Assembly (NCBI GenBank): GCA_964474435.1
Contig: CAYYSI010000001.1
Coordinates: 126,647 to 190,646, forward strand
Reading direction: 5' to 3'
Source of the DNA: an uncultured Candidatus Saccharibacteria bacterium
Lineage (GTDB): Bacteria; Patescibacteriota; Minisyncoccia; Phycocordibacterales; UBA9973
DNA: 64,000 nucleotides
Shown piece by piece: positions 44,765-58,498 of the stretch. A program made the position numbers and the translations under genes. Position 1 is the stretch's first letter. Each line of letters begins with the position of its first letter. The notes beneath the pieces are model-generated. The model searched no databases. It was not told the origin of the DNA and worked only from the letters and a program-made list of their open reading frames with translations.

Positions 44765-45415
44765 ATGAAAAAATATATACCTAAAATACATTTTATATAT
44801 ACATGGGCATTCGATAATTTTCAACGAGCTAATTTTGAAAAAAACGGTATAGAGTATCCTTCTGTGGATAAAGTATCAGATGGCGTAGTGCATATACGAA
44901 AATTATGGGATGAAGTAAATAAGGATGATAAAGTCATCAAAGGTATTGTTGATATCTTAGGTATCACTCGTGAATATGATTTCGAATTTTTTATATATGG
45001 AAAAGGAAGGCTTGGTGCAATTTCTACGCCACTTATGCTCGGTTTATACCCCAAAGAAGGTGAGTGTTATCCTGATGCAGAGTTATTGGAAGTGATTGTA
45101 CATGAACTTCTTCATCGATTTATACAATCTCCGCGCTGGGAAAAACACCCTCAGAAAGAGTATTGGGATTATATTAAAAAAGAAGCGTATCCTGATTTAC
45201 TTTTAGCAACACAAAACCATATATTACTGTATGCGGTATTAGAAAAACTTCGCCCTTTGATTTTTACACCCGAACAAATCGATCAAATAAATATCTCTTT
45301 GGCGCAACCTCTAAAGCCGGGGTATATAGAAGCCATTAATATGGTCAAAGAAAAAGGTGCTGATTTTTTCATCAAAGAATTTACTGATCGAATCATTCGA
45401 TATGAAGATGACTAA
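44765..45415 (+). CDS. Hypothetical protein with HExxH motif (possible zinc hydrolase)
   Basis: VIVHELLHRF. Low-GC island gene. No further family assignment. Confidence 0.4.
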   Translation: MKKYIPKIHFIYTWAFDNFQRANFEKNGIEYPSVDKVSDGVVHIRKLWDEVNKDDKVIKGIVDILGITREYDFEFFIYGKGRLGAISTPLMLGLYPKEGECYPDAELLEVIVHELLHRFIQSPRWEKHPQKEYWDYIKKEAYPDLLLATQNHILLYAVLEKLRPLIFTPEQIDQINISLAQPLKPGYIEAINMVKEKGADFFIKEFTDRIIRYEDD

Positions 45416-48819: not shown

Positions 48820-48886
48820 ATAAGTGGTACTAAAAAGCTTTTTGAATATTTCAAGAGGCTTTTTTTATTGCCCATTTTATGGCACA

Positions 48887-50323
48887 ATGCGAGGACTTAT
48901 GGAACGAACATATATTGGGGATTTGGGGGCAAAGGCAGGGGAGACAGTATTGATCAAGGGCTGGATTGATGTGCGTCGCGACCAGGGCAAGATGGTCTTT
49001 TTTGACTTCCGCGATATGACTGGCACCATCCAAGGTGTCGTCCTCCCAATGCGCCCAGAGGTCATCGAGATCGCAAAGACATGCCGCCCAGAAACAGTTG
49101 TGGCCGTCGAAGGCATTGTGAACAAACGCCCAGAACGCAATATCGTTGCCGATAAACAAAATGGCGATATAGAACTTGAGGTTACTGATATCAAAATTTT
49201 GAACCACGCAGAGCCACTTCCATTTGAGATCAATGTCGATACCAAAGAAGTCGGCGAAGATGTGCGCCTCAAGCATCGCTATCTCGACCTGCGCTCTGCT
49301 CGTATGCAACACAACATGCGCAAGCGTGCCGAAGTCGTGCAGTATGTACGCAACTTTTTGCAAGGTGAAAAATTTATCGAAGTAGAAACGCCGATCCTTA
49401 CCAAGAGTACCCCAGAAGGCGCACGTGACTACATCGTGCCCGCACGACTCTATCCAGGAACATTTTATGCACTCCCGCAGTCACCGCAGCAGTACAAACA
49501 GCTCCTCATGAGTGCTGGTATCGAACGATACTTCCAGTTTGCAAAGTGTATGCGAGATGAGGATGGACGAGGGGATCGTCAACCAGAATTCACCCAGCTC
49601 GACATGGAGCTCTCATTCGTCGATCGCGAAGACGTCATGCGGCTCAATGAAGCACTCCTTATCGATATCGTCACGAAACTCTTTCCTGAGAAAAAGATTC
49701 AACAGGTTCCGTTTCCACGTATTTCATACGCTGACGCAATGTCTAAATACGGCAATGATCGACCAGATATTCGCGAAGACAAAGATGATCCAAATCTCCT
49801 CGCATTTTGCTGGATCGTAGATTTTCCATTCTTTGAACGCACTGACAAGAGCGACAATCCACAGGCAGAAGGTGAATGGACATTCACACATAATCCATTT
49901 TCTCGTCCGATCGAAGAGCACATGCAGAACCTCATGGAGAAAAAAGATCTCGCATCTATCCTCACAACACAATATGATATTTGTCTCAACGGCTACGAGA
50001 TCGGGGGAGGATCAATCCGCAACCACACCTATGACGCACTCATGAAAGTCTTTGAAATCCTCGGACACAGCGCCGACGACATCGAAGCAAACTTCGGGCA
50101 CATGCTCACTGCATTCAAGACCGGTACTCCTCCACACGGCGGACTCGCCTGGGGATTTGATCGCCTCATGATGCTCCTCCTCAACGAACCAAACATCCGC
50201 GAAGTCATGGCATTCCCAAAGACGGGCGAAGGCAAGGATCCAATGATGCAGTCCCCATCAGAAGTCTCTCAAAAGCAACTGGATGAGCTCAATATTGTAT
50301 TGAAAAAAGTTGAGAAGAAATAA
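48887..50323 (+). CDS. aspS: Aspartyl-tRNA synthetase, short (archaeal/ND-type, no GAD insertion)
   Basis: OB-fold N-term, class IIb motifs (FIEVETPILTKSTPEGARDY, QSPQQYKQLLM, GGLAWGFDRLMM). About 478 aa, versus about 590 for typical bacterial AspRS. The track start 48824 is likely too early. Confidence 0.85.
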   Translation: MRGLMERTYIGDLGAKAGETVLIKGWIDVRRDQGKMVFFDFRDMTGTIQGVVLPMRPEVIEIAKTCRPETVVAVEGIVNKRPERNIVADKQNGDIELEVTDIKILNHAEPLPFEINVDTKEVGEDVRLKHRYLDLRSARMQHNMRKRAEVVQYVRNFLQGEKFIEVETPILTKSTPEGARDYIVPARLYPGTFYALPQSPQQYKQLLMSAGIERYFQFAKCMRDEDGRGDRQPEFTQLDMELSFVDREDVMRLNEALLIDIVTKLFPEKKIQQVPFPRISYADAMSKYGNDRPDIREDKDDPNLLAFCWIVDFPFFERTDKSDNPQAEGEWTFTHNPFSRPIEEHMQNLMEKKDLASILTTQYDICLNGYEIGGGSIRNHTYDALMKVFEILGHSADDIEANFGHMLTAFKTGTPPHGGLAWGFDRLMMLLLNEPNIREVMAFPKTGEGKDPMMQSPSEVSQKQLDELNIVLKKVEKK

Positions 50324-54738: not shown

Positions 54739-55881
54739 ATGAAAATCCTACTAACAGGAGGGGGCACAGGGGGACACTTTTATCCGCTTATTGCCATTGC
54801 CGAAGAATTGAACCGCATCGCGGACGAAGAGCGCATTGTGAACCTCAAGCTCTACTATATGTCAGAGACTCCCTACGATGCGGGACTTCTCGAGGAGCAG
54901 TTCATACACTTTATACCGATAGTGTCGGGTAAACTGCGCGTGCATTTGTCTTTGAAAAATATTTTGATCAATATAAAAAATATGGTCACAGTGTTCTTTG
55001 GAGTCATTGGTGCGACATTCAAAGTCTTTAGTTTGTATCCAGACGTCGTGATTAGTAAAGGTGGGTATGCGAGCTTCCCAGTACTCTTTGCTGCACGCAT
55101 ACTGCGCATCCCAGTTATCATTCACGAGTCTGACACAGTGCCAGGCCGCGTGAGCAAATGGTCAGGGAAATTTGCCAAGAAAGTTGCGCTCTCATTCCCA
55201 GAAGCAGCAGCATATTTCAATCCCAAAAAAGTGTCAGTGACTGGACAACCCGTCCGCAAAAATCTTACTCACCCAGTCACGCAGGGTGCAAAAGAATTCT
55301 TTGAACTCTCACCCAATCTTAAAACCATTGGTGTTGTTGGCGGATCCCAAGGCGCAAAGGGAATCAATGATGCAGTGGTCAATTGTATTACCGAGCTTTT
55401 GGATCATTATCAAGTCATTCACCAAACAGGAGTGGCAGATTATGATGATGTAACAACCGAAGTTCGAATCATTATGGGAGACAATACCAAGCGTAATCGG
55501 TACAAGGCATTCAAGTTTTTAAATAATGTGCAATCCAAAATGTTTGCAGGTGCAGTCGATATTGTCGTCTCACGATCAGGTTCATCTCTATTTGAAATAG
55601 CAGCTTCTGGCAGACCCTCAATCCTTATCCCGTACATCTACGCTCATGGAGACCATCAGCGCAAAAATGCATACCATTATGCACGCACAGGAGCCGCTGT
55701 CGTGATCGAGGAAGCAAACCTCACGCCGTCAGTACTCCTCAACGAAATCACTTCGATACTTGAAAATAAAGAACGCTACGACAGTATGGCAGGCCATGCC
55801 AAGGCATTTTTCTTGCCCGATGCTGCACACAAGATCGCAATCGAAGCTATCACTATTGCGATGAGCCACTATCAGGAATAA
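54739..55881 (+). CDS. murG: UDP-GlcNAc:lipid I GlcNAc transferase MurG
   Basis: MKILLTGGGTGGHFYPLIAIAEEL, and the GT-B C-terminal domain with GSQGA. Confidence 0.85.
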   Translation: MKILLTGGGTGGHFYPLIAIAEELNRIADEERIVNLKLYYMSETPYDAGLLEEQFIHFIPIVSGKLRVHLSLKNILINIKNMVTVFFGVIGATFKVFSLYPDVVISKGGYASFPVLFAARILRIPVIIHESDTVPGRVSKWSGKFAKKVALSFPEAAAYFNPKKVSVTGQPVRKNLTHPVTQGAKEFFELSPNLKTIGVVGGSQGAKGINDAVVNCITELLDHYQVIHQTGVADYDDVTTEVRIIMGDNTKRNRYKAFKFLNNVQSKMFAGAVDIVVSRSGSSLFEIAASGRPSILIPYIYAHGDHQRKNAYHYARTGAAVVIEEANLTPSVLLNEITSILENKERYDSMAGHAKAFFLPDAAHKIAIEAITIAMSHYQE

Positions 55882-56719
55882 TTCCTTTAGTCGTACTATA
55901 GACGTACGTAAATGATGCGCCCAGGAAAAAGACTTGCGCTGAGTAATAGATCCATACCAAGAGACCGACAAGCGATGATGCTCCACCAAAGACACTCGTG
56001 TGTACGAGGAGTTTTATGTATTCAGTGATGAGCAAGTTGCCGATGCCAAACAATACTGACGTCACGAGTCCTCCCATAAAGAGCACGTGCCATGGGAGCT
56101 TGCGGTTTGGGAGCACGCGATAAATGACGGTGAAAAGCAGCGTGCTCAAGATAAGTGGCACGACGATTTGAAACAATGCGATGAGGGATCCAAACGGGGG
56201 AAGGAGTGGGATAGATGACTGCACAACTGATAAAAAGAGTGTAAGCCCGATCGATACAATGAGTAGTATTGCAAGTAGCGGTATCACTGACAGTACCATG
56301 ATTTTGTCATGCACAAATGCGCCAATCTTTTTTATAAATGAAAGCTTTTTCTTGGCAGGTTTGGTGGTTACGCGCCACAGTTCGTCGAGGTCTCGGTCGA
56401 GTTCGGAGAACACTCCCAATGCCCCGATGACAAAGGTGATAGCACTCAAGAGCGCGGCTTTCACACTGATGTCCTGGAGCTGAGAATTGTGCAGGATCTC
56501 GCTGATGTAGAGCGATGCATTACTGCCGATAGTCGTGACGAGCTGGTGCATGAGCGCGTATTCTACGACGTCCTTGCTAAAGAGTGTGGTGACCGCAGAC
56601 ACAATGAGAAGTATGAGCGGAATGAATGAGAGCATTGCGTAATAGGAGAGTGCGGCACCCATGCGTGGAGCGTTTGAATTACTCCAATGCATGATGGTTT
56701 TCTTTGCCAAATTTTTCAT
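55853..56719 (-). CDS. YihY/BrkB (ribonuclease BN-like) family membrane protein
   Basis: MKNLAKKTIMHWSNSNAPRMGAALSYYAMLSFIPLILLI is the YihY signature. 6 TM. Convergently overlaps the murG 3' end by 29 nt. Confidence 0.7.
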   Translation of the reverse strand: MKNLAKKTIMHWSNSNAPRMGAALSYYAMLSFIPLILLIVSAVTTLFSKDVVEYALMHQLVTTIGSNASLYISEILHNSQLQDISVKAALLSAITFVIGALGVFSELDRDLDELWRVTTKPAKKKLSFIKKIGAFVHDKIMVLSVIPLLAILLIVSIGLTLFLSVVQSSIPLLPPFGSLIALFQIVVPLILSTLLFTVIYRVLPNRKLPWHVLFMGGLVTSVLFGIGNLLITEYIKLLVHTSVFGGASSLVGLLVWIYYSAQVFFLGASFTYVYSTTKGIIPDSGSSQ

Positions 56720-56847
56720 AGACAAAGTATAGCAGTTTATACCCGAGCTTCGCAGTACAATATTGCCGCCAGTGGGTGGGTTTGGCTTGGGCACCAGGCA
56801 ATGTTGTACTGTGGAAGCGAGGGTGATAGTTATCCACATCTATTTTC

Positions 56848-56876
56848 TTGCATGTGAACGATCGTTCACATATACT
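56848..56876 (+). promoter_or_regulatory. SOS promoter: TTGCAT-17-TATACT with a perfect Cheo-type LexA box (tgtGAACgatcGTTCaca, 56853-56870) forming the spacer
   Basis: An 18-bp perfect palindrome containing GAAC-N4-GTTC, the Gram-positive-type LexA operator. It is positioned to occlude RNA polymerase. Confidence 0.65.
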
Positions 56877-56917
56877 AAATACAGGTCGCATTAATACATA
56901 ACCTGTCCACAAAACAT

Positions 56918-57115
56918 ATGACACGACATCAATACACAAAAAATATTTACCACGAACTCCAAGCATTGAACGAACGCATTGATCACAAAATACTGCGTGG
57001 GCAGCGTTATAGTGATGATTCACTCCGCCACAAGCAGCTCTTGCGCCAGATCAAACGTCAGCGCTCACACGGATTCTTTGGTCGCTTTATCAGTTCATTC
57101 TTTCAATTCCAATAA
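56918..57115 (+). CDS. SOS-regulated small protein 1 (65 aa), hypothetical
   Basis: First ORF downstream of the LexA-boxed promoter. Helical, basic, with an aromatic C-terminus (GFFGRFISSFFQFQ). Confidence 0.45.
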   Translation: MTRHQYTKNIYHELQALNERIDHKILRGQRYSDDSLRHKQLLRQIKRQRSHGFFGRFISSFFQFQ

Positions 57116-57116
57116 C

Positions 57117-57320
57117 ATGACTACACCATTTAAAACTCTCGTTCAACACGAAATGAATCGTCTCCAAACATTGGTGACAAATCCCCAGGCTCCAGCACTC
57201 TACGCAATGCCAGGATACCGATATACCACCAGAAAGGCTATACTAGTATCTAGAAGGAAACCAAGCACATATAGTGGACTTCTTTCGTTCACTCGTGTAC
57301 TCCGACTCTTCCTCTTCTAA
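57117..57320 (+). CDS. SOS-regulated small protein 2 (67 aa), hypothetical
   Basis: ATG 1 nt after the ORF1 stop, ending 3 nt before lexA. MTTPFKTLVQHEMNRLQTLVTNP...LLSFTRVLRLFLF. Confidence 0.4.
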   Translation: MTTPFKTLVQHEMNRLQTLVTNPQAPALYAMPGYRYTTRKAILVSRRKPSTYSGLLSFTRVLRLFLF

Positions 57321-57323
57321 CAT

Positions 57324-57887
57324 ATGCAGCCCGAATACAAACAACAACTGATCTCGTTTTACCAAAGCAAAAAGCGGATGCCGACATATACGGAAATGAT
57401 GTCGCTCTTTGGATTCAAGTCAAAAAATGCCGTTGCGCGTATTGTCACCAAACTCCTTGCCGCAGGCATTGTAACCAAAGACAAGCTTGGCAAACTGATC
57501 CCGAGCGATCTCTTTGATAGCACGCCACTCCTAGGTTCAGTAAAGGCGGGCTTCCCATCATCAGTCGACGAAATCACTGACTCACTCAATATTGAAGACT
57601 ACTTGATCAAAAACAAGAGCAACACGTACATCCTCGAAGTCGATGGTAACTCAATGATTGAGGCACACATCGCGGATGGTGATATGGTGATCGCAGAGCG
57701 CACAAGCAATGCCAAAGAAGGTGACATCGTCATCGCACAAGTTGATGGAGAGTTCACCATGAAGTATTTGCGCAAGACTGGTACTACTGTGTGGCTCGAG
57801 CCTGCAAACAAAGACTTCAAACCGATCTATCCCAAACATGATCTCCAAATCGCAGCAGTTGTGCGAGGAGTGATTCGTAAATACTAA
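57324..57887 (+). CDS. lexA: LexA repressor (S24 peptidase)
   Basis: wHTH N-term. Catalytic Ser in VDGNSM and Lys in MKYLRK. 187 aa. Confidence 0.85.
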   Translation: MQPEYKQQLISFYQSKKRMPTYTEMMSLFGFKSKNAVARIVTKLLAAGIVTKDKLGKLIPSDLFDSTPLLGSVKAGFPSSVDEITDSLNIEDYLIKNKSNTYILEVDGNSMIEAHIADGDMVIAERTSNAKEGDIVIAQVDGEFTMKYLRKTGTTVWLEPANKDFKPIYPKHDLQIAAVVRGVIRKY

Positions 57888-58498
57888 TCCTTTTTGTATT
57901 CGAGAAGTTTGCCTGCTGCAATTTCTACAGGGTCAGCTTTGCGTAGCTTTTGTGGCTTCATTTGTGGAGGCAAGATAGGGAAGTGTGTACTATCATCAAG
58001 TGCTGCACCTATTTCCCACAACTCTTCATCAGTTGTAACCCAGTCTGTACCAAATTGTTTGAGACTAAATGGTGCTGAATAATCACGCATCGTTTTTGTT
58101 CCGTCATCGAGGAAATATTCGTGAAAGTAGGAGAGCGCGAGCTCACGTATTGTTTTATATATTGGCTCTCGATATCGGAGTACGGCATGATTGGTCTTGG
58201 AAATTGCGCCCCAGTATCCATGTTGCTTAAAGAGTGCGACAACGTGATCCAGATCATGTTTCGTACTGCGCAGATCTAGGAGTAAGGGCTTTTCGCCATG
58301 ATACCAGAGTACTGCGGCAGCAAGGTACGCACCTTCGATACAGTGGGCACAGTGTGTATGTATAACTCTGCGAGGCGACATGCAGGTCTCTCCATTTTTT
58401 TCGAAGTTATAGGAGATACTATTGAGATACTCCTGGATTTTGGCAGGGGTAGTGAGCTTTTTAAAGAGCTTTTCTTCCTCGGGTGTAAGCGCAAACAT
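57884..58498 (-). CDS. Hypothetical protein with conserved Cys/His (possible papain/transglutaminase-like fold)
   Basis: THCAHCIEGAYLAAAVLWYHGEKP...HGYWGAISKTNHAVL. Family not confidently assigned. Confidence 0.35.
   Translation of the reverse strand: MFALTPEEEKLFKKLTTPAKIQEYLNSISYNFEKNGETCMSPRRVIHTHCAHCIEGAYLAAAVLWYHGEKPLLLDLRSTKHDLDHVVALFKQHGYWGAISKTNHAVLRYREPIYKTIRELALSYFHEYFLDDGTKTMRDYSAPFSLKQFGTDWVTTDEELWEIGAALDDSTHFPILPPQMKPQKLRKADPVEIAAGKLLEYKKD

Follow-up and report, generated by a model that had tools for sequence, protein, structure and literature searches.

In the 64,000-nt stretch of an uncultured Candidatus Saccharibacteria genome analyzed here (contig CAYYSI010000001.1; hereafter, the window), the gene for the SOS repressor LexA is preceded by two small open reading frames (ORFs), orf1 and orf2, which share its LexA-boxed promoter. 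We consider it highly probable that the three genes form a single LexA-repressed operon and that both small ORFs encode real proteins. Judged by its homologues and their positions, orf1 founds an unnamed family of predicted lexA-linked proteins, and orf2 is clade-restricted and rapidly diverging, and probably a duplicated derivative. The broader reading, in which orf1–orf2–lexA would serve a Paceibacteria genome (Patescibacteria, or Candidate Phyla Radiation, CPR) as its autoregulated SOS master operon, with orf1 as the LexA-linked component, falls in our judgment slightly short of an even chance.

An earlier note, made from the letters of this DNA, had described the region as a LexA-boxed promoter driving a candidate pair of SOS-induced effectors ahead of lexA. 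Its observation is confirmed by the present analysis, and its interpretation is partly supported. New here are a class-wide, undescribed small partner of lexA, a clade-specific second protein, and a DnaA box that is conserved upstream of the -35 hexamer of the lexA promoter and had been missed by the earlier note. The features of the locus, in window coordinates, are the following:

56830-56838, plus strand: perfect DnaA-box consensus TTATCCACA, 9 nt upstream of the -35 hexamer (exact match, conserved)
56848-56853, plus strand: -35 hexamer TTGCAT (read in the sequence; conserved in relatives)
56853-56870, no strand assigned: LexA operator, the 18-bp perfect palindrome TGTGAACGATCGTTCACA with the core GTGAAC-N4-GTTCAC (matrix score and conservation)
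56871-56876, plus strand: -10 hexamer TATACT (read in the sequence; conserved in relatives)
56881-56906, plus strand: element of the 5' untranslated region (5'-UTR), with AGGTCG at about +2 of the predicted transcript and a weak hairpin ACAGGT/ACCTGT (fold and relatives)
56918-57115, plus strand: orf1, encoding a basic protein of 65 aa, modelled as a helical hairpin, whose C-terminus forms an amphipathic aromatic tail (homologues, linkage to lexA, structural model)
57117-57320, plus strand: orf2, a 67-aa fast-evolving basic protein (in-frame ORF at the same slot in relatives, substitution pattern)
57324-57887, plus strand: lexA, a 187-aa LexA repressor (NCBIfam equivalog, S24 domain, catalytic residues)

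For comparison, LexA relatives with 63–91% identity were fetched from 80 genomes, all of them Patescibacteria metagenome-assembled genomes labelled Paceibacterota, Nomurabacteria or 'Saccharibacteria'. The collection comprises 81 lexA loci, and orf1 was testable in 79 of them, the other two being truncated too near lexA to judge. Promoters and operators were compared across 73 related Paceibacteria loci, with the 411 kb of fetched locus sequence as the background for motif counts. A LexA weight matrix was trained on the 73 orthologous sites and run over the 64-kb window and 20 shuffles.

The lexA promoter, its operator and the DnaA box

The palindrome GTGAACGATCGTTCAC is positioned so that its 17 nt from 56854 to 56870, GTGAACGATCGTTCACA, constitute the exact spacer between the -35 and -10 hexamers. 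The earlier note had pointed out this arrangement, and it proved to be real: the operator scores 32.3 bits on the LexA matrix, as against 11.6 bits for the next best site of the window and 2.9–11.6 bits for the best sites of the shuffles. The GTGAAC-N4-GTTCAC box is present in the 73 related loci, with the flanking GT and AC invariant in every one (73/73). The -35 hexamer abutting the box reads TTGCAT in 26 loci, TTGACT in 16, TTGACG in 6 and TTGACA in 4, which together make 52 of the 73; the -10 hexamer, located 1 nt past the box in the relatives, is TATACT in 61/73 and TATAAT in 9/73. The operator itself is a Cheo-type box, and both its type and the autoregulation of lexA are ordinary.

All three genes appear to depend on this single site. 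Neither a second LexA box before lexA (matrix scan of the window) nor a promoter directly before lexA (promoter scan of the window) was found, which bears out the earlier remark that lexA lacks an operator of its own. In five relatives of a leaderless type (L050, L059, L078, L087 and L093), the ATG of ORF1 lies 6 nt past the -10 hexamer. This spacing implies a leaderless mRNA and thereby fixes both the promoter and the start of ORF1. The window is unlike these relatives in having a leader of about 35 nt, the orf1 ATG lying 41 nt past the -10 hexamer, and no clear Shine-Dalgarno sequence precedes its orf1.

A search for further GAAC-N4-GTTC sites, which the earlier note had proposed at the genome scale as a way to define the SOS regulon, was run on the window. 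The bare motif is not enriched there (2 sites vs about 1 expected), and the other GAAC-like sites, at 49871 and 62246, are weak and both lie within long ORFs; with only such weak intragenic sites, the regulon is not definable from the window. The first of them is a GTGAAT-N4-ATTCAC palindrome (49871-49888, 11.6 bits on the LexA matrix) within a 499-aa ORF (48824-50323) and is probably a chance occurrence.

The DnaA box is the second conserved element of the promoter. Of the 73 related loci, 66 have an exact box no more than 50 nt before the LexA box, and three more carry one with a single mismatch; elsewhere in the 411 kb of locus sequence, only 8 exact copies occur. The distance from the DnaA box to GTGAAC is 15–16 nt in 48 loci and 25–26 nt in 8, so the two spacing classes differ by one helical turn, i.e., they are helically phased. 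The orientation of the box is inverted in L031 and L038. Since the motif accompanies the lexA promoter regardless of the upstream gene, it belongs to that promoter. By the universal consensus, DnaA would be expected to bind at 56830-56838, and the conservation of the motif suggests co-regulation of the SOS master operon by DnaA. A DnaA box at a lexA promoter was not found described in the literature searched. The window holds only two exact copies of TTATCCACA; the other, on the minus strand at 44863-44871 within an ORF (44765-45415), is probably there by chance.

Downstream of the -10 hexamer, AGGTCG forms the 5' arm of the weak hairpin in the leader of the window, whose fold (dG -5.2 kcal/mol, z -1.3) is not significant alone. 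The GTCG of an AGGTCG/AGTCG motif recurs 7–12 nt past the -10 hexamer in 35/74 loci vs 12/74 control windows. No RNA family was detected in the whole 64-kb window with Rfam at gathering thresholds, including tRNA, rRNA and riboswitches.

lexA and its two small companions

By profile match and catalytic residues, the 187-aa gene is a bona fide lexA. Its product passes the NCBIfam equivalog TIGR00498 (124.6 bits vs a cut-off of 110.95) and matches Pfam Peptidase_S24 at 1.3e-27; the match to Pfam LexA_DNA_bind is sub-threshold (18.3 vs 23.7). Alignment to the E. coli and Thermotoga LexA structures showed that the cleavage site Ala75-Gly76, the nucleophile Ser110 and Lys147 are kept, corresponding to A84-G85, S119 and K156 of E. 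coli. The exact 187-aa LexA of the window was not found in the protein collection searched. The start of lexA is often called at an internal Met, giving 169 instead of 187 aa (L003, L004, L010-L013); in such calls the DNA-binding domain loses its first helix, and the close coupling of lexA to the ORF before it goes unseen.

The three genes are closely packed: orf2 begins 1 nt past the orf1 stop codon and lexA 3 nt past that of orf2. The tight coupling noted earlier extends to the relatives, where gaps stay short, ranging from -4 to 19 nt between orf1 and orf2 and from -8 to 29 nt between orf2 and lexA in 26 loci with orf2. Among the loci without orf2, orf1 and lexA are separated by at most 24 nt in 43/53. 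Five loci (L044, L050, L059, L063 and L080) lack orf2 and have orf1–lexA gaps of 85–149 nt.

An ORF of the ORF1 family lies between the LexA box and lexA in 79/79 testable loci (79/81 in total). Direct searches returned 8 homologues of orf1 at 66–74% identity, and a profile search extended the family to 178 clusters, all unnamed and without Pfam domains. The association also holds when approached from the orf1 side, as 3/3 divergent members looked up in this way sit 3 nt upstream of an S24 gene, in unrelated neighborhoods (e.g., ATP synthase/Pif1 and fumarase). Ten columns are invariant among 76 ORF1 sequences: M1, N18, I21, D22, K24, I25, G28, Y31, H38 and L41. The AlphaFold2 model computed from these 76 sequences predicts an antiparallel helical hairpin (helices 3–26 and 32–63) with a mean predicted local distance difference test score (pLDDT) of 84.8, the values being 86–98 as far as residue 48 or so and falling to about 55 in the tail.

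Neither small protein is recognizable by similarity, as the earlier note had stated. ORF1 and ORF2 have no match in Pfam (E up to 1), NCBIfam, PHROGs or PADLOC, and the ORF1 profile retrieved nothing relevant from all PDB sequences at E up to 10; their database relatives are unnamed. When all 30 proteins of the ORF1 alignment were scanned with Pfam, the only matches were scattered coiled-coil ones below threshold, each in at most two members; fold searches returned generic hairpins only, and no assembly record was found with the exact ORF1 of the window.

The hydrophobic and aromatic C-termini to which the earlier note drew attention are real; they are, however, short amphipathic tails on very basic cytoplasmic proteins, with net charges of +8 (ORF1) and +9 (ORF2). 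The hydrophobic moment (muH) of the ORF1 tail is 0.71 in the window protein vs a family median of 0.60, and that of the ORF2 tail is 0.64 vs a median of 0.53. By the criterion of a 19-residue Kyte-Doolittle mean of 1.6, a transmembrane-grade stretch was found in 0/78 ORF1 and 0/27 ORF2 proteins, the maximum across all 105 being 0.94.

A homologue of ORF1 was also encountered outside lexA operons, on the viral contig IMGVR_UViG_3300045921_000069 (L100, 3001-4366). This 55-aa protein (hhalign 98.4%) is devoid of the hydrophobic tail, and its gene overlaps by 20 nt a 211-aa gene whose product is hydrophobic in an N-terminal segment and weakly matches SLT (lytic transglycosylase). About 1 kb downstream of it, the contig encodes a 78-aa stand-alone LexA DNA-binding-domain protein without S24, which matches Pfam LexA_DNA_bind at 34.8 bits (cut-off 23.7).

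The slot of orf2 holds an in-frame ORF of 52–75 aa in only 27/81 loci, which, two outliers apart, belong to the subclade nearest the window. At the N-terminus of its product the motif TPFK.L...E..RLE.L is conserved, and the C-terminus is basic and aromatic. Between the L001 and L003 strains, orf2 differs at 11 synonymous and 2 non-synonymous sites, and another pair differs at 3 and 0, respectively; this synonymous excess indicates that orf2 is translated and under purifying selection. It nevertheless diverges much faster than its neighbor, with a non-synonymous divergence (dN) of 0.3–0.8 vs 0.07–0.22 for LexA. A word-based search returned only the query itself, and an exhaustive phmmer search found only two true orthologue clusters, the rest being low-complexity false matches in long repeat proteins. 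The AlphaFold2 model of ORF2 is of low confidence (pLDDT 62), with helices at 4–21 and 52–66 and a disordered middle. The profiles of ORF1 and ORF2 align end to end with an hhalign score of 21.2, above all of 200/200 column shuffles (maximum 20.0). This alignment is suggestive, and orf2 may be a diverged copy of orf1 that arose by an old tandem duplication.

Conservation of the reading frames in relatives had been set beforehand as a check that could refute the earlier note; both frames turned out to be conserved and under purifying selection. The proposed effector pair consists of two real genes. They are unequal, orf1 being the class-wide partner of lexA and orf2 an insertion limited to a minority of the loci.

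The operon lies beside ftsW-murG in the clade of the window, and this neighborhood is not conserved across the wider orf1 family. A BrkB/YihY-family ORF on the minus strand (55853-56839, 328 aa as called) runs into the lexA promoter and the DnaA box. Homologues of 275–288 aa indicate that its true start is probably near 56719 (MKNLAKK...), so that some 200 nt of intergenic DNA would separate the divergent genes. In L001-L013, the nearest relatives with shared synteny, lexA is followed by a YkuD (L,D-transpeptidase) gene and then by a conserved gene of about 204 aa with a weak match to the transglutaminase-like DUF553. The window has no YkuD gene at this position; its 204-aa gene (57884-58498, minus strand) converges on lexA, with overlapping stop codons.

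Possible roles of ORF1 and ORF2

We propose that the promoter would be of the sigma-70 type, with the LexA operator as its entire spacer; because the operator fills the whole spacer, a bound LexA dimer would exclude RNA polymerase. The DnaA box, 1–2 helical turns upstream of the operator, would probably add an input of replication status. Upon DNA damage and activation of RecA, LexA would undergo self-cleavage, of which it should be capable because it retains the Ala-Gly site as well as the Ser and Lys residues. The derepressed promoter would then give one short-leader mRNA for ORF1, ORF2 and new LexA, and termination–reinitiation coupling across the 1-nt and 3-nt gaps should hold the ratio of the three products roughly fixed. 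LexA would in this way repress its own operon, and damage would be followed by a burst of ORF1, ORF2 and LexA.

For ORF1, we tentatively favor, at clearly less than even confidence, a role as a cytoplasmic LexA-accessory protein that would work alongside LexA or act on it, perhaps as a co-repressor or a modulator of cleavage, by analogy with DdrR and UmuDAb or gp7 and LexA; alternatively, it could be an effector held in check by LexA. On this reading, ORF1 would be neither a toxin that spans the membrane nor an inhibitor of the YneA type. A LexA-accessory role is favored because the orf1–lexA pairing held in every locus examined, independently of the neighborhood, because ORF1 is highly basic and without a membrane-spanning segment, and because the tail-less phage homologue is encoded about 1 kb from a stand-alone LexA DNA-binding-domain gene. 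As the first cistron of the lexA mRNA, orf1 would also be expressed whenever LexA is made, the uninduced state included, which is awkward for a growth-arresting effector. Finally, small lineage-specific partners of S24 repressors are known (DdrR, PMC11332147; gp7, PMC4551915).

Several points weigh against the operon model or against the LexA-accessory role. A generic sigma-70 scan does not list the window promoter, because TTGCAT matches TTGACA at only 3/6 positions; the case for the promoter rests on its conservation and on the relatives with leaderless ORF1. The ORF1 dN/dS ratio of 0.06–0.30 was obtained with synonymous divergence (dS) near saturation in most comparisons. The aromatic amphipathic tail (muH 0.71) is unexplained by a co-repressor role and would fit membrane targeting or a degron. 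The ORF1 profile matches no PDB chain, that of gp7 included. The phage association of orf1 is a single case, and the phage homologue, tail-less and overlapping a membrane-anchored SLT-like gene, points to the cell wall. Adjacency to lexA is also a hallmark of SOS division inhibitors (PMC6851548).

A more far-reaching version of the LexA-accessory role, which we regard as rather unlikely in its entirety, would have ORF1 as an obligate LexA partner that is made stoichiometrically from the shared mRNA, defines a novel type of SOS module, and either tunes operator binding or self-cleavage or is an effector freed by LexA cleavage. The DnaA box would tie the operon of these minimal-genome bacteria directly to replication initiation, and ORF2 would be a recent duplicate with a clade-specific effector role. 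If ORF1 were freed on LexA cleavage, the arrangement could follow a toxin–antitoxin-like logic, with LexA as the damage-labile antidote.

The main alternative, which develops an idea of the earlier note and is less likely yet to be taken seriously, is that ORF1 and/or ORF2 are SOS-induced division inhibitors, analogues of SulA, YneA, SosA or SidA that are tethered to the membrane by their tails and act on the divisome. The amphipathic aromatic tails of both proteins (muH 0.71 for ORF1 and 0.64 for ORF2) look like the membrane-targeting helices of MinD and FtsA. The rapid evolution of orf2 resembles that of known inhibitors, whereas ORF1 is far better conserved than is typical of them. The location beside ftsW-murG in the clade of the window would suit such a function and is not kept in the wider family, and the overlap of the phage ORF1 homologue with an SLT-like membrane protein gene likewise hints at the cell envelope. 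On the other hand, the small ORFs are the first cistrons of the lexA mRNA, so that they would have a basal production alongside LexA, and the proteins have no similarity to SulA or any PDB chain. Small, lineage-specific and LexA-controlled genes next to lexA are what inhibitors of this kind look like (PMC6851548). The earlier note's analogy to membrane toxins and Gram-positive division inhibitors nonetheless fails at their defining feature, as no transmembrane-grade segment (0/78 ORF1, 0/27 ORF2) and no LysM domain were found.

Distinctly improbable is a role of ORF1 (and ORF2) as SOS-induced nucleic-acid-binding or recombination-accessory proteins independent of LexA, for instance modulators of RecA comparable to DinI or RecX, factors that coat the nucleoid or single-stranded DNA, or RNA-binding proteins. 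Such an activity would be in keeping with a net charge of +8 or +9 in about 66 residues, helical hairpins are common in nucleic-acid-binding and coiled-coil adaptor proteins, and the conserved polar residues N18, D22, K24, Y31 and H38 suggest a specific binding surface. Yet there is no similarity to DinI, RecX or another solved protein, and this role leaves unexplained why the strict linkage is with lexA and not with recA.

Membrane-damaging SOS toxins of the TisB/type I or SymE-like kind are a very remote prospect: small size, LexA control and hydrophobic C-termini are shared with them, but the maximum Kyte-Doolittle mean stays well under 1.6 in all 105 proteins, which are strongly basic, largely polar and constitutively co-expressed with LexA, Rfam detected no antisense RNA family in the window, and a structured hairpin conserved class-wide is unlike type I toxins. 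We give still less credence to the small ORFs being an untranslated or regulatory leader with functionless peptides, for which the lack of a clear Shine-Dalgarno sequence before the orf1 of the window and the conserved 5'-UTR motif might speak, in view of the purifying selection at the protein level, the 10 invariant residues across 76 ORF1 sequences, the confident ORF1 fold, the frames open in 79 and 27 divergent genomes, and the stand-alone phage homologue.

To our knowledge, the SOS response of Patescibacteria (CPR) has been approached by comparative genomics only, without a checkpoint or accessory protein being assigned to it. ORF1, co-transcribed with lexA in all of the roughly 80 related genomes examined, is the best candidate now available for an SOS component specific to this lineage; it would represent a novel co-regulator of LexA or else a checkpoint protein of a new type that does not span the membrane. 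Since the protein is short, confidently predicted and easily expressed, its role is directly testable. The phased DnaA box suggests a direct link between replication initiation and the control of the SOS response, a link that was not found described in the literature searched. More generally, small ORFs left unnamed by gene callers can be the most conserved neighbors of a master regulator.

Comparison with known lexA-linked systems

The Patescibacteria SOS network was reportedly studied by Sanchez-Osuna, Barbe and Erill in 2017 (Environ Microbiol 19:3465). Small ORFs upstream of lexA were not found mentioned in the literature searched, outside which this 2017 study falls.

In B. subtilis, the 77-aa YnzC is an SOS-regulated protein encoded next to lexA, in the yneA-yneB-ynzC operon, and folds as a helical hairpin with a flexible C-terminal part. 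ORF1 is likewise a small predicted helical hairpin encoded near lexA, comparable with YnzC (UPF0291/DUF896; PDB 2HEP, 3BHP, 2JVD). The fold is too generic for the hairpin to count as evidence of kinship, and membership in the YnzC/DUF896 family was rejected, with an hhalign probability of 0.8% against B. subtilis YnzC and no DUF896 Pfam match.

In Pseudomonas and relatives, sulA is found downstream of lexA in lexA-sulA operons, and its product is an alpha/beta protein of about 160 aa that binds FtsZ. As in these operons, the small genes described here share an autoregulated lexA transcript. They differ in being located upstream of lexA and in encoding proteins of 65–67 aa that are all-helical and without similarity to the SulA of about 160 aa. 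Assignment to the SulA family was rejected, given no Pfam, NCBIfam or PDB sequence match and an all-helical ORF1 model; a TisB-like membrane toxin was rejected as well, the proteins being polar, with net charges of +8/+9 and no transmembrane segment.

YneA, ChiZ (Rv2719c), DivS and SosA are small, poorly conserved proteins under LexA-box control whose genes adjoin lexA, and adjacency to lexA is the synteny rule by which they were found (PMC6851548). Like them, orf1 and orf2 are small, LexA-controlled and beside lexA, with a GAAC-N4-GTTC operator shared with it. The genes of the known inhibitors are divergent from lexA, whereas orf1 and orf2 are co-directional with it and upstream in its transcript. 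YneA, ChiZ, DivS and SosA have one membrane-spanning segment, an extracellular C-terminus and mostly a LysM domain, in contrast to ORF1 and ORF2, where none of the 105 proteins is membrane-spanning and LysM is absent. ORF1 is also unlike these inhibitors in being conserved across the whole class.

The closest parallels in genetic logic are found among small partners of S24 repressors. In Acinetobacter, DdrR is encoded beside umuDAb and controlled by it, and the protein binds UmuDAb and aids its DNA binding (PMC11332147). The gp7 protein of phage GIL01 binds to LexA, strengthens its binding to DNA and prevents its cleavage (PMC4551915). The gene order differs, ddrR being divergent from umuDAb and orf1 the upstream cistron of lexA, and ORF1 has an aromatic tail, for which DdrR and gp7 have no known need. 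No sequence similarity to these proteins was detected, the comparison being that of the ORF1 profile with PDB chains rather than with DdrR directly; none is required for the parallel, because they are functional analogues rather than one family. Like DdrR with UmuDAb and gp7 with LexA, ORF1 is a small, lineage-specific protein strictly paired with the gene of an S24 repressor, a likeness of genetic logic only.

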